NCBI GenBank assembly: GCA_001599295.1
Contig: BCGN01000003.1
Span: forward strand, 1,798,001-1,862,000
Direction: 5' to 3'
Length of the DNA: 64,000 bases
From: Sporopachydermia quercuum
Lineage: Eukaryota
Part shown: positions 15,505 to 64,000 of the stretch, piece by piece
How the letters are laid out: each line of letters starts with the position of its first letter
Position numbering within the stretch: the first letter of the stretch is position 1
Position numbers and translations under genes: made by a program
The notes under the pieces: generated by a model
Told to the model about the DNA's origin: nothing
What the model saw: only the letters and a program-made list of their open reading frames with translations
Databases searched by the model: none

Positions 15505-18153
15505 GAATTGTGGATGATTGAAAAACGTCTACTGCTGATGTGGTTGTGTCTATTATAACGGCTGAAAACCAATAGCCACTTGAATCAGAAATGGCACTTA
15601 GTGAAAGTGCTTGTTGTGAAATACGATGAAACTTAATGTTGTCGCAAAGAATCAATAAACTACAAGATCAATAACTCTTTTAGCTGAAATGGCTTTTTCA
15701 AAACTAGACTTACTCTCTTCGACCCTTTCTCCTTATTGTATGCTTTTCTGTCTTTTTAGTGTATTGTGTAGATCCTGATGATCTGATATAAAGCTATCGT
15801 GCAAATCATTGGGTTACGTTACAATTGTTCTTGTTGTCTATGAGAAAAAGCAATATTCATACGCTTGATTATGCCATAAACCAAGAGATCCAGTAAAAAG
15901 TTGAGTGAGGAAGAGAATGAAAAGTAAAAGTGAAATAAAATGATTCGGCAGAGGTTAAAAGGGCTCATAAGTTATAATAAGTTTTCAATTAAAGTTTTAA
16001 ACTTCAATTTTATTACTATGACTTGTTTCACATAGGAACACCGTTTAAACAATTTACCTTACAAAACATGATTTAAAGTTATTCAGCGAAGAACTTAATT
16101 TAACATATATCAAGTTAAAGCTAAAAGCCGTTGAACTCTAAACCTGAAGAGAAGATTGACAAGATGATTCAATTATTTGATTAGATGAAATAGCGGTAGA
16201 GGCTTTGCTGCAGAATGTGAAAAGTAAAGTAGTGGCAATATAAAGTACTATTATATGATAATGCTTCTATTTATATCAGCATGTTTATTTATTGAATGTC
16301 CCTACACTCATACCTTGTACAGTAGCAACATAACATGTGAAGTCCTTTGAGAAACTATTTAAAGTTGGATATGTCATATTAGGACAACATGGTGTTTGGC
16401 TGTTTTTTTGAGAAGCGCTGACCAGAAGTAGAATCTATTAACAATCCGTAACTTGCACTAAAAAGTTCCAGCAAATTTTTATTTTTAATTCCTAGAGAAG
16501 TCGTAGTTATTTGTTGGAGGAACCGACAAAAAAAGACAATACCTTTAAGGGTGATTAGAAAGTTTTAAGTTGAACTTTAACTAAAAACCCGTAGTTAAGA
16601 TTCAGGAATAATTGAGAGGTAAAGTAGGAGCATATTCAAAATCAGAGTAAGATATTTTGTTCGACTAAGGATGTTAAGTTAAGCCTTTATAATTAAGGTG
16701 GTAGACATTTAACAATATTTTATTTTTTCACAGAATCTTGTAAATATCTATCTAAATTCAAGAATTCAAATTCTATCAGGAACCAAATGTAAGCTTTACG
16801 TCGCAACTTAAAACAATAAAGTTAATAAACTTAGATTCTCGGCAAACCGACTCATTTTTTATTTGGATGAGATCCGAAGAGTTTCCTAACCACATCTTTC
16901 GATTTTTGTTACATTATTTTATTCAGTTATTGGTAATCGATGATCATTATAATAAATTTCATCGTAATTCTGTGTTTTTATAGCAATCATGATCAGTTGG
17001 TTCTATTTCTTTGTATAAGTTTCCTTGGATTGTTTACTCATTCTATTTAGTATCATATTTGCCTACTTTTCAGATCATATGGTTCTCCGTCCTCCTGACA
17101 GAAAAGTGCTTTGACCCAAAGTAGATAGAAATAAAAGGTCTTAATTATGCAAGAGGTTTGAGATATGATAAATCAAACAGATTAATCTAAATAACTATAT
17201 AGATTCCTAGTGTCCATTATAATGAGTTTTTTATACAATGACAAGCAAGAGTGTCTTATATGAAAGGAGTTTATAATCAGCAAACAGTAACCAAGCCTTT
17301 TATTTTTATACAAGTCAGGTTTTCAGGAGATTTTGGCAATATCCCTCAAACTTGTCACGAGGAATTAAGTGTTGAGGAATGAACGTTTCCTTATCTTTCA
17401 CTCTAAAGTGCTGCGATCTATACTGTCGGTGTTCCATTCCGGAACCCCCCGTCTCACAATCCACATCAAGTATCATCCCAAAAGTATAGAGACAAAGTGA
17501 TACCTCAAGATTTTAGTATGTTATTCCGTGAGCAATTGGTGAGCAAACGAAAAACCATGATGGAAGCATTCAAATCTATTAACAGTACTACGAAAAACAA
17601 ATAAACAATGGCTGTTTTAATATAAAAATTTGATCAAAATGTGAAGGAAGAAAAGAAAACATTGTTTGAGCCAAATTACAAAGGTAAAAAGAGTGTTTTC
17701 TACTAAACTGTGGAGCCTGTTCTTACTGAAAGGCGCCAACCAATCATTGTATTAATCAACAACTTCATACTGCTATTCTTCACACAATGCATACGTAGCA
17801 CAATGATGAAAACATGTTGAAAACTTGTTTACAAACACGAATTTTTGTAGTAACAGACTATATAATTGTGGCCAAGGAGCATTTATATATTCAAAACATT
17901 GTACAATCTCAAGTAAACTAAAGCAAACAAACATTTTTTGGGTATGTTAACTGGCGCTTAATCCTCAGCGCTTCTTGCCTACCTGTCTTATCACGTACTT
18001 TGTAGGTATAGAAGCATTTAGCATCACCTGGAGTGGCTAATAAAATGTCAACAACAAAGGCAGACAGAATAAAAAAGTATTTAGGAGAAACCTCTGTACG
18101 AAAGTAGAAGTGAAATCCTAGTCTCTCAGATAACATCCAAACAAATTTCAAAC

Positions 18154-20317
18154 ATGGAATCAGTAGTCAGTATGAAAACAAAAGCCATCACTGGCAGAGA
18201 ATCAGAGAGCACTATCCAAACATTCCTATCAATATCGTTTGGATGTCTGGCGTATTTACGTGGGCTCTTCCCAGAAGAATACTTTCTAGATAAGAGGTAC
18301 ATCTGTCAAAAGCAAGATAAACAGCAGGACTCTGTGAAGATTAAAACCTTGGTCAGAGGATTATCAAAAGAAGCTGATTTATACTTGGATTGGGTCGAGA
18401 AGAGTATTTCACAAGCAGTTCATGATAAGTTTCTGGATAAATTAATCTTGGGTATATTCCTTGACAGAAGAAAGCCAACTGAATTAGTAGAGAGCTACTG
18501 TTTTGCCTTTCAATACGATGAAGGAGAAGGCAATAATTATGTTAGCCAAAATGTTGTATCAATGGGTATTAACGGAGAAAACGTTGCCATCTCAAGTATT
18601 GAACATGCCAGAAAAGAATTACAGCAACTTGTAAGACGATTCATTATAATAACTCAGACATTGGATCCTCTACCGGATAGAAAGTATCTGGCGATCAAAA
18701 TGAAGCTCAATAAAAATTGTCCACCCAACTATAAGCCTCCATTGTTTCAAATATTGAAAGATGATCCAAATCTGGCTTTCTGCGTATCTCAGAAAACAGA
18801 TTTGAATATACAACAAGCAGGTTGTTTAAAAACTCCGCATAACGGGTATGAATAACATGATCATGTTTTTTGTTCTGAGTACTTCTGCTCTTAGAATTAA
18901 CATTGGAAGTAGGTTGGAAATAGATGTACTTTCACTCGATGAACAAACATTACAAATCCCTCCAGCTGGAAGGAAGGTACAGATCGATCCTTGGAGTTCC
19001 CTCGCAAAAAATCGTTCAAAACCAGAAACTTCTGCTGCTACTACTAATAATAGTCCTAACGATAGACAATCAAACGCACAGCAAAATCATAGGGCCATAA
19101 AAATGAGTAGTGGCTTGTCTTCTCAATCCCACTATCAAACTGACAATCATATATTTCTCGATTCTCAGCCAGTTGATTCTATTGAAGTCATAAATAAACA
19201 TAACAATACGAAGGATTCTAATCATAATGATCCTGATTGGTCACCAGAAACACACAATACTCAAACTGAAGATTCTCAGTCAATTGAATGTGAATGCGGC
19301 ATGAATGAAAATATCAGGCTATTTGGATCGGTATTATGTCCACCTTTAATTTATTGGTACAACGAGTTCATCATAAATTGCTAACATTGCATAATTTTTG
19401 AAACATAGGAAAAATGTAGTACCTGCGGGAAACAAATTCACAAAGGGTGTTACACCTTCATATCAAAACCCAAATTCAAGTGTTGGACTTGTATTCTTCC
19501 TTCTGAAGTACTACAGAGCAAGAAAAAGGAAATCATCCAATTGCTGAACCTAAGAAAGATTATTAAAGCACTCTATCTTAAAGGCTTACCTAGCAAGATA
19601 TCAGACCTGAACATGTTCATCGAATCTACCTGTGAAAAATCTTCAGTTGCAGAAAATGACTACTCCTTGTTATCATATATAATGATCGTCATTCTTGCAA
19701 CAGGGATAGTGGTTAACGAAGAGGAACTAAGGGAAAGTCCAGGTAGAACCAATAATGGTGATGGTTCTATCTATAAATGGTCACGCATTGTAGTGGTTGA
19801 TATTCCAGGGGTTATTAACTCGAAAGGCAAAGCTGTTGTAGGAAAGATAATTTGGAATTACGTTCCACGGTTGAAAGAGAAACTCAATACCAGGTATTGG
19901 AGAGACTATTTCTACTCAGATGATTGTATTTTGGACACCGCACCCTTAGACAAGCTATTAAGCGAATTCAAAGACAACAGTGAAGCCACCACTGTTGTAT
20001 CTATTGATGAAGACGAAATCCAGAAGGATATATCCAATGAGTCTTCTACAATATTCAATAACAACACTCATGACAATGAAACTGGTGATAGTAGTGCACT
20101 TACTGAATATTCGATGTCATCAATTGAAAACATCAGCACATCTCAAGGTGCCAACTTACTTAAAAGAATATATTCAGATAACATTCCATCTTCAATCATT
20201 TCACAGGGTTTACTGGATACCAGCACCTCAATGGATGATCTTAGAATTGTTGAGGATATTCTAACCCTAGAAGAACCAAGAAAGAAACTCAGGTTGGATA
20301 TCTCAGGTGCCAATTGA
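18154..20317 (+). CDS. HOP1: Meiotic HORMA-domain axis protein Hop1, 3 exons (~672 aa)
   Basis: HORMA 'ISFGCLAYLRGLFPEEYF', 'LVRRFIIITQTLDPLP', 'PPNYKPPLF'. PHD-like finger 'IECECG...KCSTCGKQIHKGCY...FKCWTC' is restored by splicing. Exons 18154-18845, 18913-19330, 19409-20317. Confidence 0.88.
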
Positions 20318-48345: not shown

Positions 48346-49458
48346 TTAATCTAATATTGATTGCCCAATATTCATTAGGACTCCACTTCTTCCATCAAAC
48401 TTTTTATAGGTCTCAGTTCTCAGTTTCTCGTCCTTGAACTTTTCCTGCTCGTCCAGAAGCTTTTGATTAGTTAATTCATTTTCCCGTTTTACTATTCGAG
48501 ACTCAGCAAAGCGTTTCATTTCCTTCAGTTTTGCTTCCCGTTCTTCGTGAGATAATGCATTGGTTGTTCCAATAGTATTGCTTTTTGAGCGAATATTCGA
48601 CGGACGCTCAAGTCTGGGCTGGTAGTGTCTACTTTTGGGGTATATCTCGTTATTATATGATCTTTCGTATTTCCTATCTCTTTTGTAGTATTCTTTGATT
48701 CTGGGTATATCTTCATTGTGATCATCGTATGGGGCGTCCTCCCGTTTCACTCTTCTGAAGCTTTTATCGCCATCTCTACAGGAATCAGTTGTTCGGTCAT
48801 TTCCTGTAGATCTTGCGTCATAATATTCATAATCTCTTTGATCTTTATAATGGTCTCTTTCTCTGTAACTATCTCTGTCTCTGTCGCCATTTTCATCTCT
48901 GCTTCTCTCTCTTTTCTTTCTGTGCTTATTGTGCCTCCTACTATCGTTTTCATTACTTGAAGTCCTCTTTTTAGATTCTAGTTTCTTTTTTGCTGCCAAA
49001 GTCATCATCTCAACCTGCCGCTGTTTTATCATGAACATAGGATCATCTTTGACCTTCTTCGCCATCTCTTTAGCGCTCAGAGCAGCTAGTCCTGATTCTC
49101 CTATTGATGAGACATTTTCAAGGGTTTCCATTTTGTCTTTTCTTTCTGATTTTTCGGTATCGTCCTTTTTCAATATCAGATCATCAAACCTTTTCTTCCC
49201 TAACAAATAATCATCTGCCTGTTGCGATGAAAACGATTTCTCTCCCTCATCATACATCCAGTCGACCTTATCTTTCCTTTTCTTTCCTTGTAACGCCAGA
49301 AGTTGCATCCGCTCTCGGTCAGCTTCAATTTCCTTCTCACGTTCCTTGATTTTTTTCAACTCCGCCAGTGCTTCCTGTTCTCGTATCCACACTTTTTCCC
49401 GGTTTTTCATCAAACCGGGATGCCAGGATTTTTTCATATTCAGATCGCCAGGCGCCAT
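48346..49458 (-). CDS. CWC25: Pre-mRNA splicing factor Cwc25
   Basis: 'GDLNMKKSWHPGLMKN', 'KVDWMY', 'YLLGKK', 'DDPMFMIK'; R/D-rich tail. Confidence 0.93.
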   Translation of the reverse strand: MAPGDLNMKKSWHPGLMKNREKVWIREQEALAELKKIKEREKEIEADRERMQLLALQGKKRKDKVDWMYDEGEKSFSSQQADDYLLGKKRFDDLILKKDDTEKSERKDKMETLENVSSIGESGLAALSAKEMAKKVKDDPMFMIKQRQVEMMTLAAKKKLESKKRTSSNENDSRRHNKHRKKRERSRDENGDRDRDSYRERDHYKDQRDYEYYDARSTGNDRTTDSCRDGDKSFRRVKREDAPYDDHNEDIPRIKEYYKRDRKYERSYNNEIYPKSRHYQPRLERPSNIRSKSNTIGTTNALSHEEREAKLKEMKRFAESRIVKRENELTNQKLLDEQEKFKDEKLRTETYKKFDGRSGVLMNIGQSILD

Positions 49459-50892
49459 TTTGAGTACTGATTGAAAGAACTTTAGGTAAACAGTAAATGA
49501 CTTGTGGTAGAAAATGTGATATGTGTTAGGTTATTAAATGAAGTATTGTGATAGTGTGTAGTATTGTTGAGATAGCACAATGTGACAGTTATACTGAATG
49601 TTGCTTTTGAGCAGAAAAATTGTAAACAGCTACTCGTAGCCAAACAATAAATAATCTTGCAGTTTGCCTTAGTTTGTTGGTGCAATTATTGGGATTTAGT
49701 TCGTTAAATGAAAGCTTGAACAAATGAATCGATAAGCAGAAGAAATAATAGCTGTGGTGCAAAATGGCAATCTTTCTTTTCATGAGATACAAGAGGGATT
49801 TTTTTATTTGATTATGTGATATATAAATATATTTGGACGAAGTGCAAATGGTGCATATAGCTTGCATGATAAATATGGCAAACAGATTGGAACTGCTAAT
49901 AAAGAGTTGTTTCAATGGAAAATCTGTGAGCTAAGAATGTTAAGAAATGACTATCTATTATTTGTTGTGAGTTAATTGAAAAGTAACTCATTTAACTACG
50001 AGCATTATTAGAGAGTGTGTACATATAGTGTCGAAATTGCAAACGGTGAGAACTTATCAGAAAGCAGGAAGATGCAAGCTTATGCGTAATGACATTTTTC
50101 TGCGTACATTCAACATATTGACCATCATCAAATAAAGAAAAGTTAGCAAAAACTCTTACTAAGAAACTTGGTTCATTCAATAAAACTTCTTTAACTTGGA
50201 TCAAATATTCATTCAACCCTGTATTAAGTACTATAAGAGTACTAATCTACTGCTTCTAGTTTCGCTTTTCGCCTGATATTTAACCTCCGCATCAATCGAA
50301 TTAACATATGCAAGCAGGTTTTCCATTTTCAGTGAGATCTTGCTATATATGTACATGTATCAAAGATACGTGATTTATCCAAACCTGCATATTACTGCAT
50401 GAGAAACACATGGAACGATTTTCATGGATACTTTGAAACATCCAAATAGCAACAAACGAATCAAGGCCCTATTTACTGATTGCACAACACTCATGATTTC
50501 TCACGGTTAAGCATGTGAATCACCAAGTACAACTATACTCTACGCAGGGATTTGGTAAACAGTTCATGTTATTAGAGTACCTGCAATCGTACACCGCCGA
50601 TTGCAATGATCCGAATTATATAAATAATTGGCTTCCATACTCATCAATCAACAAATACCAACATAAAAGATTAGTGAATTAACGTGTTAAAACAATTACT
50701 AGATGTTATAATTAAGCCAATAAAAGCACTTGACAATAAAGCTGAAATTTCTTGCCAGTTGAGTGAACTTGAGTCAATGACTGGTATCCTTTGAAATGAC
50801 ACTCGAATCGAATCAGAATAAAAGAGGTTCCATGTAAAATACAAGTAGATTGACCCAATTAATTTGAGAATATATAAATCAACAAACAACGT

Positions 50893-53453: not shown

Positions 53454-54789
53454 GCAAGCTCTTGATACATCGTGAGTCGACAGTAGTAATAGCCTGTATC
53501 TATGGAACTCTGGGTGTATTCTGGTAGTTTACGTCTAATCGGACAAACATGCGACAATTATAAAAAGAATGCCACTTTCATCAACTGCAAAGCTGACTCG
53601 TTTCCATATCTTTACCAAGCTCTCAACAATTTCTACTACGAAACAGGTTACTCATCGCTTGGCCCATTTGTAATTGGTCATCATTGAACTCCTACCAAAG
53701 GTATGCGCTTGTCCACCATAACCTATGACGATAGACTGCAAGTCTTTCATAATTAATCAGAGTGTATTTTTAACCATTATTGAGAAAATAAAGGAATAAT
53801 TTATCAACAGGTTCCATTTAATCATTCTTTGCTCATCTCCTAAGCTATCTCATATTTCCCCACAAAGAGCTTATCACGTGTCCTTATTTCCCACACAAAT
53901 AAGGTTTAAGACAATTCCGACAATTCTGCCTCCAAATGTCATTATTTCATCACATGATCTCCAGTAAACCCCCACCATAGTGCGCTGCCAATTGTATCAT
54001 TTGCTGCAGCCTATTTTCTATACACACTAGATGCTATTGCAGGAATACAAGAACACTCTAAATAACTAAAAATATACCTTCACATCCGCCTTTTCGATAT
54101 ACCTTTCAACATTATCATTTTGAAAACCATGAACACTGCCTTCACATTGGATTCATCAAATCAACCTGACATTTTCTACAGCCCCAATATTGTCCTTCGT
54201 CCTACGTCCTCCCCCTATGTCCTATCATCACCCTATGTCCTCCATGACATTCCTCCGACTTCCACCATTGGATCTACATACCTCACAGCATTACCACTCC
54301 TTTTCCTATGTTTAACTCCAATGTCTACCTCATTTCTATCGCCAATCCATCAATAGAGAAAAAGTAATGAATGGCCTTTCTACCACTCCGGTATCCTTTT
54401 TGTCACATCTGAAAATAGGTCTACATAGCAAAATCTACTCTTCTGTTCACTGCGTACTAGCTACCTTCTATTTGTCATTCCTTGCACTAAGACATAAACC
54501 CCGAACTCCGATCAGGGAACACTGTACAGGATTTTATCATTTAGAAACTCCGTTTCTTCAACAACAGCAGCAATAAAAAGGTCAGGAAAGGTCAATCCAT
54601 CAATATTTTTGGCTGAGTTGTTGTTGAAAATCTGCTAGGAACATTTGATTCAATATTCAGGCGATTGTCACGAGGATAACATAGTGTTGTCAGTGCGCCT
54701 GTGGGATTTCTACTTACTGTCGCGTACAAAGTACATCAAACAGGTCATCACAATCACCAGCACTACAAGAACTATTACCACAAATACCA

Positions 54790-57700
54790 ATGGCTACTCG
54801 TGCTGAAAGCGCCTTGGCCGTCAACATCAAAAAGGCCACTAACTCTGACGAAACTTCTCCTAAACGTAAACATGTCAGAGCCTGTATTGTCTACACTTGG
54901 GACTATCAGTCGTCAAGAGCTTTCTGGAATGGCCTGAAACTCCAACCCCTGCATGACGATCAAGTCCAAGTGTTTAAAGCGTTAATCACCATCCATAAAG
55001 TTCTTCAAGAAGGCCATCCGAAGACTCTGATTGAAGCTCAAAGCAACGTTGGGTTTATCCAATCTCTCGGTAAATCCACCATCACGGCTGGTGGTGGGAA
55101 CACTGAAGGTCGCAAAGGTTATGGCCGTTTAATCAGAGAATACGTCGATTTTCTCATGCGGAAGCTTGCATTCCATAAATCGCATCCTGAATTCAACGGT
55201 ACGTTTGAATACGAAGAATATGTCAGTTTGAAGAGCATTAGTGACCCCAATGAAGGCTATGAGACAATTTTGGATCTCATGACGTTGCAGGACAGCATCG
55301 ATGACTTCCAGAAGCTTATTTTTGCTTCTATTTCTAACTACGGCAAAAACGAATGCAAAGTTTCCTCTTTGGTGCCAATGGTAGCTGAAAGCTACGGTAT
55401 ATATAGATTCGTCACGTCTATGCTTAGAGCTATGCACCACGCAACTGGGTCTGACGAAGCCCTGGAACCACTAAGACAAAGATATGATTCGCAGCATATG
55501 CGGTTACGGGATTTCTATGCTGACTGTTCTACGGTTAAGTATCTTACGTCTTTAATCACTGTACCCAAGCTGCGGATTGAGCCTCCTAATCTGTTCAAGG
55601 ACGACGAGGACAGCGATGAGTTTGCACCTTCAGTTCCCGCACGACCTCGAAAGGAAGCGAAACCCGAACGTGAACGTACCGAATCGCCAATCAGCGTCCA
55701 GACTACTTCCGCCACCGGAACCCCCGAGCCCGTGACCGATTTCTGGTCCCAGCAACAGGCCCAACAGGCTCAGCTCGCACAGCAGCAGTACGAAGAAGAA
55801 CAACGGCGTCTGCAGCAGGAACAGCAGCTTGCCTTGCGGCAGCAGCAGGAACAGGCCTTAGAACAGCAGCGCCAGTTCGAGGACATGCAGCGCCAGCAAC
55901 TCGAGGCCCAGAAACTCGCCCAGCAGCGCCTCATCCAGGACCAGCTCGCCCAGCAAACGCAAGGCAGAGTCGCTGAGCTCGAACGCGACCTCCTCAACTA
56001 CAAAGGGCAGTATGACCAAGACCAGCTGTTGCTCCAACAGTATGACCAACGGGTTAAAACCTTGGAAACAGAACTGCAGCAGTTGAATTTGGCTTCCAGC
56101 CAGCAGTTCCAGTCGAAAGACGAGTTGATTGCTACTCTTCAGGAGAAAATTAACCAATGGCAGAAGAAATACGAAGCGTTAGCAAAGCTCTATTCCCAAT
56201 TACGTAAAGAGCACATTGAGCTTCTCAACAAGCTGAAGACTTTCCAACAGAAAGCTGCCAGTGCCCAGGAAGCTATTGAAAAGAAGGAAAAGATGGAACG
56301 GGACATGAAGGCCAAGAACATTGAGCTGGCCGACTTGATCCGGGAACGGGACCGCGCGCGGTACGAGCTAGACAAGCTCCGAGGCGGCCAAAAGGACGAA
56401 ATCGAGAAACTCGAGCGGGAAATCTCGTTGCTGAAAGACCAATTGTCCAAAAGCGAGAAAAGCTCCAGTTCTAACGTTATGCTGCTGTTGAATCAACACC
56501 AGAAGGAAGTAGAAGATCTCCAACGGCAATTGGCTGAACGGGAGGAAGAAATCGCCGATTTGAAGAAGAGCAAGGCTTCCGCTTCAGCTTCCGACGGCGA
56601 GCTCCATGAACAATTGAGAGAAAAAGAGGAAGAACTAGAAATCATGCAAGCTACAATGGACAACGCCTTGAAGGAGCTCGCCGACCAGCAAAAGGCCAAC
56701 GAAGACGCTCTAGACGAACAGATTGACCAGGTTTTACTTGAACAGCTCGCTAAACTGTCGCATATCATCGATTCTGTATTATTAAACGGGGCAAAACGCG
56801 TCCAGGACTCAATCTACGAATTGGATTCTCCTATGCAAGCAGGAAATCTCAATGCTTCTCCTTCTTATTTGCTTTCAGTGATTGAAAAAGCTTCTAATTC
56901 TGCTACTGATTTTGCTACTGCGTTCAACAATTTCATAGCCGATGGTCCCAACGGTGACCATTCAGCAATCATTGAAAACGTAACTGTGTTTTCCTCTGCT
57001 ATCTCTGATTTAGTACTGGATTCCAAGGGAGTCACTCGGTTGGCCAAGAACGACGATGAGAGTGAAATGATAGTTGCATTGGCCAGAAATGTTGCTTTAT
57101 CAGCCGAGCATTTCTTCACCAGCTTGACGTCAGAGAAATTGGCCAAATTGTCTGATGAGGATAAGACCGAGAAGGTGATTTTGAGTAATATGGAAGTGCA
57201 AGAGAACCTGCAGAGTCTGTCGCATTTGGCTGAAAGAATGGTGCCCAAGTCGTTGCTGAATGACACCAGCACCAAAGATTTGGGTCAATTGGTTGATAGT
57301 GAAATGGAGAAAGCAGCATTGGCTATTCAGAAGGCCAGTGAACGGTTAACTGAACTGTTAGCTAAGCCCAAGGATCCAAGTCTTTCGTCTATTGATCTAC
57401 AAGTGAACCAGGCTATATTGGCAGCAGCTATTGCTGTTACCAATGCAATTGCTATGTTGATGAAGGCAGCTACAGACTGTCAAATGGAAATTGTAGCTCA
57501 GGGTAAAGGAACTGATTCTAAGGCAGCATTTTATAGGAAACATAATAGATGGACCGAAGGATTGATTTCCGCTGCGAAAGCAGTTGCAGGATCTACAAAT
57601 ATCTTGATAGAGACTGCCGACGGTNTTTTGAGCTCTGCAAATACGCCAGAACAGCTGATTGTTGCGTCCAACGAAGTCGCAGCATCAACGGCTCAATTAG

Positions 57701-58002
57701 TGGCAGCATCGAGAGTTAAAGCTACGTTTATGAGCAAGACCCAAGATAAATTAGAGTACGCATCTAAAGCTGTTACATCAGCATGCCGGTCTTTGGTCAA
57801 TCAAGTAAAGGAGATATTGGCGAAGAAACAAGAGGAGGAAGCTGTGGTTGATTATTCGAAGTTGACACCTCATGAGTTTAAGACTACGGAGATGGAGCAG
57901 CAGGTGGAGATTTTGAAATTGGAGAACTCTTTGAACGCGGCAAGGAAAAGACTAGGCGAAATTAGAAAATTCAGCTATCAAGATGATAGCGATGAAGAAT
58001 AG
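54790..58002 (+). CDS. SLA2: Endocytic adaptor Sla2/End4 (ANTH, coiled coil, I/LWEQ)
   Basis: 'ETSPKRKHVRACIVYTWD', 'FNGTFEYEEY', Q-rich coiled coil, 'FYRKHNRWTEGLISAAKAVA', 'EMEQQVEILKLE'. Confidence 0.97.
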   Translation: MATRAESALAVNIKKATNSDETSPKRKHVRACIVYTWDYQSSRAFWNGLKLQPLHDDQVQVFKALITIHKVLQEGHPKTLIEAQSNVGFIQSLGKSTITAGGGNTEGRKGYGRLIREYVDFLMRKLAFHKSHPEFNGTFEYEEYVSLKSISDPNEGYETILDLMTLQDSIDDFQKLIFASISNYGKNECKVSSLVPMVAESYGIYRFVTSMLRAMHHATGSDEALEPLRQRYDSQHMRLRDFYADCSTVKYLTSLITVPKLRIEPPNLFKDDEDSDEFAPSVPARPRKEAKPERERTESPISVQTTSATGTPEPVTDFWSQQQAQQAQLAQQQYEEEQRRLQQEQQLALRQQQEQALEQQRQFEDMQRQQLEAQKLAQQRLIQDQLAQQTQGRVAELERDLLNYKGQYDQDQLLLQQYDQRVKTLETELQQLNLASSQQFQSKDELIATLQEKINQWQKKYEALAKLYSQLRKEHIELLNKLKTFQQKAASAQEAIEKKEKMERDMKAKNIELADLIRERDRARYELDKLRGGQKDEIEKLEREISLLKDQLSKSEKSSSSNVMLLLNQHQKEVEDLQRQLAEREEEIADLKKSKASASASDGELHEQLREKEEELEIMQATMDNALKELADQQKANEDALDEQIDQVLLEQLAKLSHIIDSVLLNGAKRVQDSIYELDSPMQAGNLNASPSYLLSVIEKASNSATDFATAFNNFIADGPNGDHSAIIENVTVFSSAISDLVLDSKGVTRLAKNDDESEMIVALARNVALSAEHFFTSLTSEKLAKLSDEDKTEKVILSNMEVQENLQSLSHLAERMVPKSLLNDTSTKDLGQLVDSEMEKAALAIQKASERLTELLAKPKDPSLSSIDLQVNQAILAAAIAVTNAIAMLMKAATDCQMEIVAQGKGTDSKAAFYRKHNRWTEGLISAAKAVAGSTNILIETADGXLSSANTPEQLIVASNEVAASTAQLVAASRVKATFMSKTQDKLEYASKAVTSACRSLVNQVKEILAKKQEEEAVVDYSKLTPHEFKTTEMEQQVEILKLENSLNAARKRLGEIRKFSYQDDSDEE

Positions 58003-58059
58003 AGGTAGAGAATAGTTTGTACATGTTCACATAAATCCATTTTCCTATTTATATTGTAA

Positions 58060-58813
58060 TTAATTATTCCTCTTATAGCTAGCTTTAGATCTCATCCGTT
58101 TATTTGAGAACTACGAAAATGGTTAGGATTTGGTGAGGTGCAGGAAGTCCAGGAACACGTAAATCTATACTTACCCATATGCGTACTTGCGTCGGTGTCA
58201 TATTACACTTCTGAGCTATTAATTGCCTTTCTTTACTATTTGGAGATCTCATAATGTCGAACACTGCTTCCAGAAACTCTTTAACATGACTTGGTATGAT
58301 AGTTCTTGTTCTCCTAGAATTATTTTTGTCGATAGAAAAAGACTCTCCGGCTGAAATGGGCGAACCTTTAGAATCCGAGCCAATGGATGAGTTATACGAC
58401 ATCGAGCAAAGTTTAGAACATGCATTTGAGAAAGATTTACAGTAGGATTCTATCAACGGCCCAACAAGTTTTCCAAATGAAGGATCATTGGGAAAGTCCT
58501 TACCAAATTAGTTAGTTTTTATTATTTTCAAAGGATGCTTTGAAAAGAAACCCCAAAACAATTCACTTAATTCACTTACTTTCAAAAGATTTCTCAACGA
58601 ATCTTGGTACAATAGACTTAAATCTTCGATTGACTTGCATTGACTTTCTGTTAGTGAAGGGAAATGGTCAATTGCAAACATTTTGGAGTAATCAACTTTT
58701 GATTCGTATTCATGTTGGGATTCCAAAAAGTTACTGTATGTACTTTCAGTAGATTCTGTCAGCTTAACAATACTGTCAATAGAATCGAGTAATGAAGAAA
58801 CTTCTTGATTCAT
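58060..58813 (-). CDS. MATa1: Mating-type homeodomain protein a1, 3 exons (~202 aa)
   Basis: Exons 58813-58580, 58498-58175, 58110-58060. Removing intron 58174-58111 (GTAAGT...CCTAAC...TAG) gives helix 3 'QVRIW|FSNKRMRSK'; upstream 'RRTRTII...FLEAVF...SPNSKERQLIAQKC'. Convergent with SLA2. Confidence 0.92.
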
Positions 58814-59977
58814 TTTGTAATTACCAGTATCCTGGTATTGGAAGCAGATGATTTGAGAAATTATAAACAAACCAAATAAATAATATTATCAACTTCGATT
58901 CGAAGTAAGAAATAATAAAAAATAGAAAAGGAAAACAAGGTACTTTTTATATGGTTTACTTAGGTCATTCTATAATGAGTTTATCCAGCTAGCATTTATT
59001 ATTGAAATTAGCTCAAGCAACTAATTCTCAATAAGTTGTCATAGATCCATCGATGTTTGAAAGCAGATCGAGTTTCTGATCTGTTTCGTCAAAATGTTCC
59101 TTACCATAGATTTTCCTTTATATATAAATTCATCTATTTGTTTGTTCTGTTGTTATATGTCTGTACACTTTGCTTTTTCTGTTTTGCGAGAATATCATTT
59201 ATTGGGGAAAATTCCGATGGCAGAGCGTCAAATTGACTTGTTTCTTACCCATTAATTAACTTTATCCAAATTTAGAGTTCGACAGTACTCCTACCTCTCA
59301 AGAATATAACTAGCTTGAAACAATTAGGAACTCGTTAATTTTGCTCCATTCTATTTGATATTAATGATTACACCGATGATGACTAAAACCCTCCAATTAG
59401 TTGGGATTCAAACTGAGGCAATAACCATTGGATGATCACACCCATATTCCCATGAGGCATTCAACCTGAATTTGCACACATATAGGCAAACTTTGAAATC
59501 CCTTTTGTTTTTGTTTGCTAACAGATAAAATACAATATTCTTATCTATTTTGTGCAAGTACTTCTCCTAAACTGTAGAAAGACACCTTTTCTTTTACTTC
59601 AACCTTCAAGATTGAGTTGTATCCCAAAGAGGAAACTATCAGAATAATTTTAATGAACTCCTCTTAAAATTGTTCTTGTAATACTTGTTTCAGAATCACC
59701 ATTGCCAAACATTTTTATCATTAACGCAAAACAAATAACTAAGTTTGAAGCTGAAACGGCTAAGGAAGCATCAATCAACCATATAGAACGTAGGTGATAG
59801 TATTGATAAATGACTATAAATAAGACCTGATCGCAAGACAGACGTGATGCAAAAGTTAACATGATGAGACTATTTAAATATTAGAATCTCTGAACATAAC
59901 TTCCATAAGACATTAAGTAGACTCAGAAACTTAGTTCCATTACAGCTATATAAAATTCTAATTGACTGCTTGCTAAA

Positions 59978-61048
59978 ATGAGTTCTCAAGATGAGCGGCA
60001 GAGAAGCTCTACCTTCTCAACTTCAGCTGCAGCTCAGTTCTTCACTTCTTGCATTATTCCTCGGATTCGAACAAAGTCTCCACCCACAGTAGTGACACTG
60101 GAACAAAAACTACAGCTGAACATACAATTAACAGAAAATAAGTCACCAAGAACCAGACAAGACCTGTCAAGTACCTCATGTCCATCTTCATACTCATCCT
60201 TATACCCATCTTCTCATCATTGTTCTTTATATCTGCTTGATGATGGAACCACAAACAATAAAGATCTGGTATGCAAAGCATCTTGTATCTTTCAACTCAA
60301 ACTAAAACTGCAGAATAGTAAACTAGAGGACAAGGATAACCTTCCCATATATTCCACAACTGAAGCGCCAATGAACAAAAATGAAGTGAATTACAGATTT
60401 GTTGACTATGGCCAACACGAGTTTACTCCATTTTCCGAAGACATTATGAAACAAGACCATAAGGTCAGAGGACTGAAAGGTAAAAATGGATCGATCCCCA
60501 GGCCAAAGAACAGTTTTATGATAGCAAGATTTCTGCTGAATCCTTGTATTAGAAAGTATATCACAGATGATTTACCACAAATTTCAAGAACTATGTCAGT
60601 TGTAAGTTTGGAAGACTTGAGGATTGTTTTTTATTTTTTATTTTTCTTTTCTTTAATAATTAATTGCAAATCTGACCGTATAAATTTCTTATAGTTCTGG
60701 AGCAATGTTAAGTCTTCTCCAATAATGCTTGCCTATTATATGTACTTGGCTCAGTCTGAGCAGGCATGGCACTCAACTGTTTATCGCACATACAAGTACA
60801 AGCCAGATAAAGGAAAAAGGCCAAAGCAAAAAATCTCTGACGAACAAATAGGGTCTGATAAACCGCACCTAACACAAAAAGATTTTGAGCATTTACCCAA
60901 ATTTGTGGCCGCTAATAAGAAGCCATACAAGAGAATTAAATATGTGGTTGAACAGAGAGTATCGAAAGCGAAACAGAAACCCTCAATAAGTACTACGCAG
61001 AATGTTCAACGACTTGATAGGATGAGAATTGAAGTTCTCCTAAACTGA
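59978..61048 (+). CDS. MATa2: Mating-type HMG-box protein a2, 2 exons (up to ~325 aa; true start may be downstream)
   Basis: 'IPRPKNSFMIAR...QISRTMSV|FWSNV...YYMYLAQSEQAWHSTVYRTYKYKP' after removing intron 60602-60694 (GTAAGT...TCTGAC...TAG). Divergent from MATa1. Confidence 0.9.
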
Positions 61049-63393
61049 GGTTATTTAGTTTAGGAGGACATCCAACAAGTCAAAAGGGCCTTCAGCGATC
61101 ACCATGATTTAGCATCACATCCTAGTTGTTCTACAATGGAACAAAAAATATCACTCATGGTACCATTTGACATGAGACCTAGTAGAGGAATCTTTTTCAA
61201 TTTAGCCTTGCGCCCTTTATAGGACACTTCCCTTCACATATATATAGAAAAGTCAAAAAAATATGGGGAATTTCGTAGTTAAGACAAAGTAGTCCGTACA
61301 GAAACAAGTCTTTAATTCAAGGTATATATATGCAAGAACCATGCACTCACCAAGTGTACTATTAATGGATGCATATATGCTTAACTACCTGGTACATCAA
61401 ATTCATTCCAGGACTGGCTGCATTTATTATTTCTTTGAGACGTAATTATATTCTGAAAAAGTCCTAGTAAATTATCCATTCTCTTTCATTTTGTACTAAT
61501 TTCGTTACATACACTACGCTACTGAGTCTGGGTACAAATACAAACATAACTGTCAATACTGACAAGAGTATACAATTGCTTTTCTCAGAATAAAATTCTA
61601 ATAGACTTGTAACTTAAATAAAAAATCGCCTACCATTCTTGTCCAAAAGGTGGCACGTAGTTGCGTATACGATTAGTTTCGGTTAGCACTTGTTCACATA
61701 ATATAATTAGGTTTGTAGCAAAGGGGTGGTTCCAAAACTTCAAAGTGCCCAACGATGTTCTACCTGCCCTAGCAAGGAGGCAATTCAACTGTTGACTCTA
61801 CTACAATCAAAACTATGACAAATCTACAAATTTAAATAAAGTGAACCCAGAAATAATTTTAAAAATAACTCAAAAATTTGACTTTAGTTACAGACAATTG
61901 AATAAAGGCAAATATAAAAGCAACATTTCTTAGAACGTCAACCATTCACTCATTCTATTCGTCCAGATAACATTCAGAAAGTTCCTATTAAAGATTTTGA
62001 TGTGACGTGACATACATTATCAATATCTTCGGAAATAACTCTGACAACTCTTTTCACCCGTGTAAGAAAGGGTATGGATGACTGATATTGCTTTTAGAAT
62101 AGCTCTTTCTTCCACTGCACACTATACAAAGTTCCCATTGTCCTCACATTGGAATAAAATAACTTCGTTACCAGTAGCAATATAAACATGGTCATAAATG
62201 AACCGATTGCATTTCTCTTTCCTTCCAACTTATATATCCTTCGACCCTTGATGATGGTCACAGTCTGATGTTGCCTTTGATATAAGCGAACGGCTACATC
62301 CCTACAATTTTTAAAACCGCTTTTGGGGTAATTCCAAAGTAGAAGGCAATATTGCATTTTTTCATGAATTATTATATAAACCAAAACATATGTTTCCGGT
62401 AGCTATGGAAGTTTGCGTTTCTTTTTCACTCTTTCAATTCCAATTAGTAACCATTATTGACATCTAAGTAGTTACTATATAGTAATGGAACTGGAGAATC
62501 GTTTCTACACACAGCCTATGCAGGCTCTTCACGAGCAGCGATATAGCATAAGAGTTTCTATATTGAAACTCATTAGCCTTAGCATAGCCTTAGTCCATGG
62601 GTAGGCTTCTGCTTTTGTCAAATTCCTTTCCATGATACATGAGGGATTGTAATCATTCTGCCAAAACAATCCTGACCTGCAATGTTTAAGCTACATCCTG
62701 TTCAAAAGTTCCATAAGGACGATCCATACGAACCAATGATGCTGAATAATCATTCTTATCATATATTAAGGTAAAAATAGACTAAAAGTTCCATCTTTCT
62801 CCTTAGTGATATCTAGTAGGTAACTTCTCTTAAACTACTCACCAAATAGTTCAAAGGAACAGTTTTTCGTGATTTCTTCGCAAGTTCTATGTCGCACGAC
62901 TCAGATATCCCTAGGCATTAGCTGGATGAACAGTACGTGCTTTATTGCACAGTCTTCAGGGAACAAGACTCAGTCAATTTTCACTAGCCTAAATTGGTTC
63001 AAAACAGTAGTGAGTGCTCTTAAACTTTGTCTTTAAATGATCTGTGAGAGCAGGGTGGTATTGCTATGCTCTTTACTTACGCATTCTATAGTAAAAGTAA
63101 AATTGGACCTGGCTATTCCATATTTCGGTATTCCATACTTATCGCAACTCCTTTGAATTATGAGCAAAGCCTTCATTGTTTGGTTTACTCGCTTTTATTA
63201 TTTCTATATGCGTACCCCAACGTACCAGCCAGTTTTCAGTATCAGTTTATACAATTTTCGCCTTTCCTTTGCATAAATTTAGATTCCCATCCAATCAGTC
63301 ACATATAATAGAGGTCCCAACATATTCACACGCCAATGACGAGGTAGAGACTCCCCACGTGTCATCATAAAATGGTTTAATCTTCAAACTAAA

Positions 63394-63470
63394 AGCTGGG
63401 TAGTGTAGTGGTAATATGAGACGCCTGCACCGGAATTCACGAAGTCGGGGTTCGAACCCCTCCTGAGCTA
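63394..63470 (+). pseudogene. Degenerate tRNA / tRNA-like element with intact Pol III A and B boxes
   Basis: A box TAGTGTAGTGG (63401-63411), T-arm GGGG-TTCGAA-CCCC, acceptor AGCTGGG/CTGAGCT with one G:G mismatch. The anticodon arm does not pair canonically (CTGCA present) and there is no immediate T-run terminator. Confidence 0.6.
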
Positions 63471-63694
63471 AAAATACATACTCGTCTTTGCCATCTATAG
63501 AATGTGNGTAACTGAGTGCCTTGAGTAGTCTATACCTCGCTGAAAGAGAAGATACAACAACCAGAGGTAACCGTTATCATTATCAGCGAGTACTTGTAAT
63601 GTTTAAATTAGTTACTATAAAGAGAGTGATTAATAGATACTATTCGATATATGAAATTCAATAGCAGCATAGCATNTATTTCTGTATAACTATA

Positions 63695-64000
63695 TCACAA
63701 TCTCCGAAATAAACTTTCAATAATTTGTCCTTCGGCCGTTTTTTCTACCGTAGACCAAAATTTTTCATGTCTACTGGCATTAATAAACTCATTGTTGGTT
63801 GCTTCTTCCAACCTTAGAGGCTCTGCTAAATCATTATTTGCCAACCATTCTCTTACTCTCTCGATACTTGGTGATATATAAGATATATGACTATTATCCA
63901 AATTACTCCGCAGGATCTCGTTTTCCAACCATTCAATGAAGCAAAGATCAGCATTAGCCTCATTATATTTAGTACTAAAATTTTCCCAGAATGAGTGATA
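63695..64000 (-). CDS. MATalpha1: Mating-type alpha-box protein alpha1, 3' part (5' end beyond window)
   Basis: The frame is open from the window edge for 102 codons: YHSFWENFSTKYNEANADLCFIEWLENEILRS... The W-x5-Y-x8-F-x-EWL pattern matches the end of the yeast alpha1 alpha-box, and the location is next to MATa2. Confidence 0.75.
   Translation of the reverse strand, partial: YHSFWENFSTKYNEANADLCFIEWLENEILRSNLDNSHISYISPSIERVREWLANNDLAEPLRLEEATNNEFINASRHEKFWSTVEKTAEGQIIESLFRRL

Follow-up and report, generated by a model that had tools for sequence, protein, structure and literature searches.

The 64,000-nucleotide stretch of DNA analysed here (the window; contig BCGN01000003.1, positions 1,798,001 to 1,862,000) carries towards its right-hand end the mating-type (MAT) locus of a standard-code budding yeast, at the ancestral site beside SLA2. 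Two intact a-type genes, MATa1 and a divergent MATa2, are followed on the same molecule by the 3' end of a further gene, which runs off the window and is most likely MATalpha1, and we propose, with a probability of roughly 0.6, that this is a contiguous primary-homothallic (PHC) locus, the type defined by a distance of less than 20 kb between a and alpha genes and by the absence of repeats (Krassowski et al. 2019, PMC6692504). The features on which this proposal is built are, in window coordinates:

54790-58002, + strand: SLA2, with ANTH (PF07651, E 7.1e-77) and I/LWEQ (PF01608, E 2.5e-60) domains (Pfam)
58060-58813, - strand: MATa1, three exons (58813-58580, 58498-58175, 58110-58060), product of 202 amino acids
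58814-59977, no strand: divergent a1-a2 intergenic region, defined by position only; presumed shared promoter
59978-61048, + strand: MATa2, divergent HMG-box gene, exons 59978-60601 and 60695-61048, product of 325 amino acids
61049-63694, no strand: spacer without a recognisable gene, 2,646 nt
63695-64000, - strand: terminal open reading frame (ORF), 101 codons and a stop, the 3' end of a gene running off the window; probable MATalpha1 tail

MATa1 opens with an ATG at 58813, ends with a stop at 58060 and has an intact frame once its two introns (81 nt and 64 nt) are removed; both introns show GTAAGT, a branch site (ACTAAC or CCTAAC) and a closing AG. Its second exon encodes a homeodomain (PF00046, E 4.2e-11) that covers profile positions 1-47 contiguously, with no TALE insertion, and the Homeobox_KN family of Pfam is reached at only E 0.016. 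The S. cerevisiae MATa1 homeodomain accounts for the top four of the 16 PDB matches at E<=0.01 (E 3e-8 to 3.3e-6; PDB 1akh, 1f43/1yrn and 1le8), which makes it the nearest relative of known structure, with 51 residues aligned up to the Trp at the exon end; POU and paired homeodomains come next, at 1.3e-4 or weaker. The likeness to the S. cerevisiae protein is confined to the homeodomain. Relatives of the locus were also gathered from metagenomes by way of the SLA2 C-terminus (592 pattern matches led to 128 relatives, from which 80 loci were kept), and one of them, L031, carries an a1 that matches that of the window at 51% over 53 amino acids (E 7e-15); for the N-terminal 140 residues of a1 no relatives were detected except in L031. 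The identity of a1 is, judged from its sequence, sound: it appears as an HD2-class homeodomain gene whose nearest solved relatives are the known MATa1 proteins. The intact, spliced a1 that an earlier note on this DNA had placed beside SLA2 is borne out by the two introns, the PF00046 match and the four MATa1 structures at the head of the PDB matches. The intergenic region 58814-59977, which separates a1 from a2, has no repeats of note.

The assignment of MATa2 is less direct. Its single intron of 93 nt (GTAAGT, CTGAC, TAG) lies inside the HMG box, and the conventional searches return nothing: the exons taken singly have no Pfam match, the two half boxes have none at E<=10, a translation of the gene that continues across the intron, with X in place of the stop, finds nothing in Pfam or PDB, a word-based homologue search with exon 1 upheld 0 of 55 candidates, and exon 2 has no Atlas match. 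The link is provided by another of the metagenome loci, L001, which is the closest that was found (its SLA2 C-terminus is 83% identical) and which contains an intronless ORF (L001:5474-6337) that the spliced a2 matches at 36% over 75 amino acids across the splice junction (tblastn, E 1.5e-8). This ORF is itself blank in Pfam, HMG_box included, and yet 20 of its 21 PDB matches at E<=10 are SRY/SOX HMG boxes (best E 3.2e-4). Because a2 matches the L001 ORF, and the L001 ORF in turn matches SRY/SOX HMG boxes, we take a2 to be a divergent but probably genuine MATA-type HMG gene, with an HMG box that is linked transitively, via L001. An intact, spliced a2 near SLA2, again as the earlier note had it, is thereby upheld, with an HMG assignment that is hard to reproduce by any other route. 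In L031 (10001-12167) the order is likewise SLA2, a1 (on the - strand) and a2; in its a1 no intron interrupts the homeodomain, and its a2 has an HMG-box intron placed as in the window gene, one residue before a conserved Trp. The 30 nt just upstream of the a2 start (59950-59979) recur at 61590-61619 with 80% identity; short two-copy families of this sort are often due to chance.

That the a genes and the terminal ORF lie on one molecule was observed directly in k-mer contigs. Three of five sequencing runs (X1 to X3, from two studies) contain the whole stretch, and their contigs were compared with positions 54000-64000; as the assembly may have been made from these very runs, the comparison is a check on the assembler and not on the biology. 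In X2 a single 48.8-kb contig spans 54000-64000 with 0 differences and continues for about 32 kb past the window end, in X3 a single 106-kb contig does the same and continues for about 23 kb, and in X1 a 17.3-kb contig covers 57286-64000 and then some 10.6 kb more. Sequencing depth over the locus equals that of the flanks, and no half-depth idiomorph contigs, nor branches at idiomorph borders, of the kind that a collapsed a/alpha diploid would give, were seen. The a and alpha genes had been claimed to stand together at one SLA2-linked locus; the a genes and the contiguity stand, and alpha1 is plausible but unproven.

The terminal ORF lies 2,646 nt beyond the a2 stop, is convergent with a2, stays open to the window edge and includes the peptide previously quoted from it, all as described before. 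Its coding status was assessed by a codon-usage log-odds score for which eleven clear genes of the window served as the training set: in its own frame the ORF scores +15.9 bits (0.157 per codon), and negative values come from the other five frames and from the four spacer ORFs of at least 70 amino acids (-2.4 to -10.5 bits), with per-codon values for comparison of 0.185 for a1 exon 1 and of 0.072 and 0.107 for the two a2 exons. The ORF is probably a real gene end. Other identities were considered and set aside: alpha2, as the C-terminus of the ORF is without a homeodomain (Pfam), and DIC1 or APN2, as it matches no carrier or zinc-finger domain (Pfam).

The case for alpha1 consists of position and of a putative ungapped resemblance to the closing part of the alpha1 box of S. 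cerevisiae. The first 28 residues of the ORF would share some 12 identities with that stretch, among them both Trp residues, a YN pair and F-x-EWL. A loose pattern for the end of the alpha box, which was drawn up post hoc, has one occurrence across the window's six frames and 0 in the 80 loci. The AF2 single-sequence model of the ORF is helical, with helices at residues 2-11 and 14-31 and a low-confidence pLDDT of 64.2; the modelled helices would be compatible with helices 3 and 4 of the alpha1 domain as described in PMC2999568, and they do not discriminate. We consider it likely that the terminal ORF is alpha1.

Several results weigh against both this identification and the PHC proposal that depends upon it. 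Pfam returns 0 families for the whole ORF (E<=1), 0 for its first 70 amino acids (E<=10) and, for its first 40, one irrelevant match at E 0.17. Phmmer against 1.84 billion representative proteins gives 0 matches, word-based homologue searches (length class 'longer') 0 of 76 candidates at E<=10, PDB Spt6 alone at E 4.8, and Atlas a best score of 0.89 with no family. The length of the ORF can be matched by chance, the spacer having a stop-free frame of 102 amino acids at 62094-62402. The core that defines the alpha box, F-[MIV]-[AG]-F, sits in helix 1 of its N-terminal part (PMC2999568) and would here fall beyond base 64000, leaving at most about 28 alpha-box residues in the window. The closest relative, L001, has the layout SLA2-a2-APC5 with no alpha gene, and given that layout the terminal ORF could possibly be an extra, lineage-specific gene. 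Finally, in X1 only, the contig graph has an unexplained branch inside SLA2, at 57286-57315, to which we return below.

The alpha-box family PF04769, which had been proposed as the test of the ORF, has no match at E<=10 to the 40-, 70- or 101-residue pieces of the ORF. This outcome does not settle the matter, since some two thirds of an alpha box, if there is one, would be situated past base 64000; and since HMMER filters drop weak partial matches, it lowers the alpha1 claim without excluding alpha1. The 0 phmmer matches are what is expected of a fast-evolving MAT gene and are also counted for alpha1. An exact 30-mer of the ORF has 0 matches in metagenome contigs, alpha1 motif scans of all 80 SLA2-linked loci found none, and Pfam on 150 of 435 downstream ORFs (from loci L001 to L028) found no alpha box, HMG box or homeodomain.

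A first rival explanation is that of an ordinary heterothallic MATa locus (SLA2-a1-a2), next to which the terminal ORF belongs to some unrelated gene, fast-evolving or lineage-specific. In its favour, all searches with the terminal ORF are negative, its sole positive similarity to alpha1 is the putative resemblance described above, and L001 and L031 have a-only layouts beside SLA2. In L001 (334-8810) SLA2 is followed by 1.9 kb without a detectable a1, the intronless a2-like HMG gene and APC5 (PF12862); in this a2-only locus the HMG gene no longer has the intron that is present in the window and in L031. Against the rival explanation, the neighbour of a2 in L001 is a different gene, APC5, on the other strand, and no APC5 was found in the window by tblastn; furthermore, the ORF occupies the exact place of alpha1 in Ogataea naganishii. 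The resemblance to alpha1, moreover, would fall in the most conserved C-terminal stretch of the alpha box, ungapped, and a hand estimate suggests that it would reach significance if the two sequences were compared one to one. We judge a plain MATa locus to be unlikely.

A locus that switches by inversion, flip/flop or similar, with its repeats outside the window and possibly derived from the 3' part of SLA2, is improbable. It would draw on the X1 branch: a third X1 contig, 27.8 kb long, has 57286-57315 of SLA2 as its last 30 bases, so that two left flanks lead into the SLA2 3' end, and repeats of the SLA2 3' end are the inverted repeats of the flip/flop loci of Ogataea and of W. canadensis (PMC6692504). 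Yet the whole 64-kb window contains 0 direct and 0 inverted repeats of at least 40 nt; only 18-36-nt matches of chance size occur within 54-64 kb, blastn finds no diverged copy of 57-64 kb in the window, and tblastn finds no second copy there of a1, a2 or the terminal ORF. The X2 and X3 contigs cross 57286-57315 and the whole locus unbroken, and because they are unbroken an exact repeat arm within them is unlikely. Had an inverted repeat been collapsed, broken contigs and doubled depth would be expected. The 17.3-kb X1 contig has single-copy depth (32.7 against 31.9), and the sequence at the loose end of X1, preceding the shared 30 bases, is absent from the window. The suggestion of a very compact invertible cassette, made in the earlier note, is not supported, given the lack of repeats or diverged copies in 64 kb and contigs that are unbroken for 23-32 kb past the window. 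The inverted repeats flanking a and alpha genes that mark flip/flop loci are not found in the window, the unbroken continuation of the contigs speaks against them, and a distant partner repeat is unlikely. The absence of repeats near the MAT genes that marks PHC loci holds for the 64-kb window, and the unbroken X2 and X3 continuations agree with it.

That the assembler fused the two idiomorphs, a and alpha, of a diploid or mixed culture into one scaffold is highly improbable. The runs, being possibly the assembly's source, are not fully independent of it; nevertheless single reference-free k-mer contigs from two studies run from a2 through the spacer into the terminal ORF, at flank-level depth and with no branch at the would-be idiomorph borders. 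There is also a quite improbable reading of the X1 branch that is compatible with a and alpha genes in one place, namely that the locus is not static and that the junction seen only in X1 marks a second site linked to the SLA2 3' end, which could be a silent or telomeric MAT-like copy or the endpoint of a strain- or culture-specific rearrangement. Were this so, an a+alpha locus would be engaged in a DNA exchange not yet described for PHC yeasts.

If the locus is a contiguous primary-homothallic one, its working may be outlined from the families of its genes. The a1 product, a homeodomain protein, would need alpha2 as its partner in order to act, a2 would be an HMG activator of a-specific genes, and the terminal gene, most likely alpha1, would be an alpha-box activator of alpha-specific genes; alpha2 may come after the terminal ORF. 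Because both gene sets would then lie on one DNA molecule, with no repeats to recombine, a haploid genome would be self-fertile without DNA rearrangement, and cell type would presumably be set by regulation and not by inversion.

Two further features of the neighbourhood are:

48346-49530: CWC25, upstream of SLA2
63394-63470, + strand: tRNA-like relic within the spacer, with A- and B-box-like stretches (Rfam tRNA, 20.5 bits, E 0.55)

CWC25 and SLA2 form the usual budding-yeast neighbourhood, SLA2 being the conserved left flank of the MAT locus. The CTG codons of SLA2, in an alignment of eight related SLA2 genes, fall mostly opposite Leu (82 of 118 cells), and for this reason the standard code applies, in agreement with the earlier description of a standard-code yeast. 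The tRNA-like relic does not reach the Rfam gathering score of 29, and ARAGORN, with introns allowed or not, reports no tRNA there. The spacer holds no remnants of SLA2 or APC5 (tblastn) and no Rfam family at gathering score. Single N bases stand at 57627, inside SLA2, and at 63508 and 63677, and the gene models are unaffected. Elsewhere in the window, at 18085-20317 (+ strand), an ORF with a HORMA domain is followed by two ORFs in other frames without a Pfam match; the three may be one intron-split gene, consistent with an earlier remark that this genome is intron-rich.

The closest known parallel to the locus is that of O. naganishii, a PHC yeast with the order SLA2-MATa1-MATa2-MATalpha1-MATalpha2-DIC1, a 7 kb noncoding spacer between a2 and alpha1, and no repeats (PMC6692504). 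The two share the gene order from SLA2 onwards, the noncoding spacer between a2 and alpha1 and the lack of nearby repeats; they differ in that the spacer here is 2.6 kb and not 7 kb, that alpha1 is here only probable, that alpha2 and the right flank would lie beyond this window, and that the lineage is probably a different one. The other PHC yeasts named in PMC6692504 include Sporopachydermia quercuum, Barnettozyma spp., Wickerhamomyces hampshirensis, the Lipomyces starkeyi clade, Debaryomyces and Scheffersomyces stipitis, and with these the locus would have in common that both gene sets share a chromosome at a distance of less than 20 kb and lack inverted repeats; the CUG-Ser1 examples, unlike this locus, are not SLA2-linked. 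For S. quercuum the same source reports PHC, with MATa genes only in its sister S. lactativora, and its text does not give the S. quercuum gene order; the a2-only L001 would suit such a pair of species. The flip/flop (FF1) loci of Ogataea polymorpha, Pachysolen tannophilus, Kregervanrija and Ascoidea rubescens (PMC6692504) likewise have both gene sets on a single chromosome, separated by a few kb to tens of kb and often next to SLA2; inverted repeats of some 2 kb or more enclose those loci, and none was found in this window.

An independent origin of self-fertility, as the earlier note suggested, is a weaker claim than it sounds, since repeat-free a+alpha arrangements have already been inferred in 11 lineages: the tree figure of PMC6692504 and its supplement 2 show 11 PHC transitions among 332 species, and one of these lineages has the present gene order next to SLA2. 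The architecture is a known one and the locus, which may itself already be catalogued, adds a case and not a concept. If the terminal ORF is truly alpha1, the compact a+alpha loci known from the ancestral site beside SLA2 would be joined by another. PHC yeasts raise the question, put in PMC6692504, of how a haploid with both gene sets chooses between mating and sporulation, and a small, repeat-free locus with a 2.6-kb spacer would then be a convenient one in which to test whether that choice is epigenetic or transcriptional.

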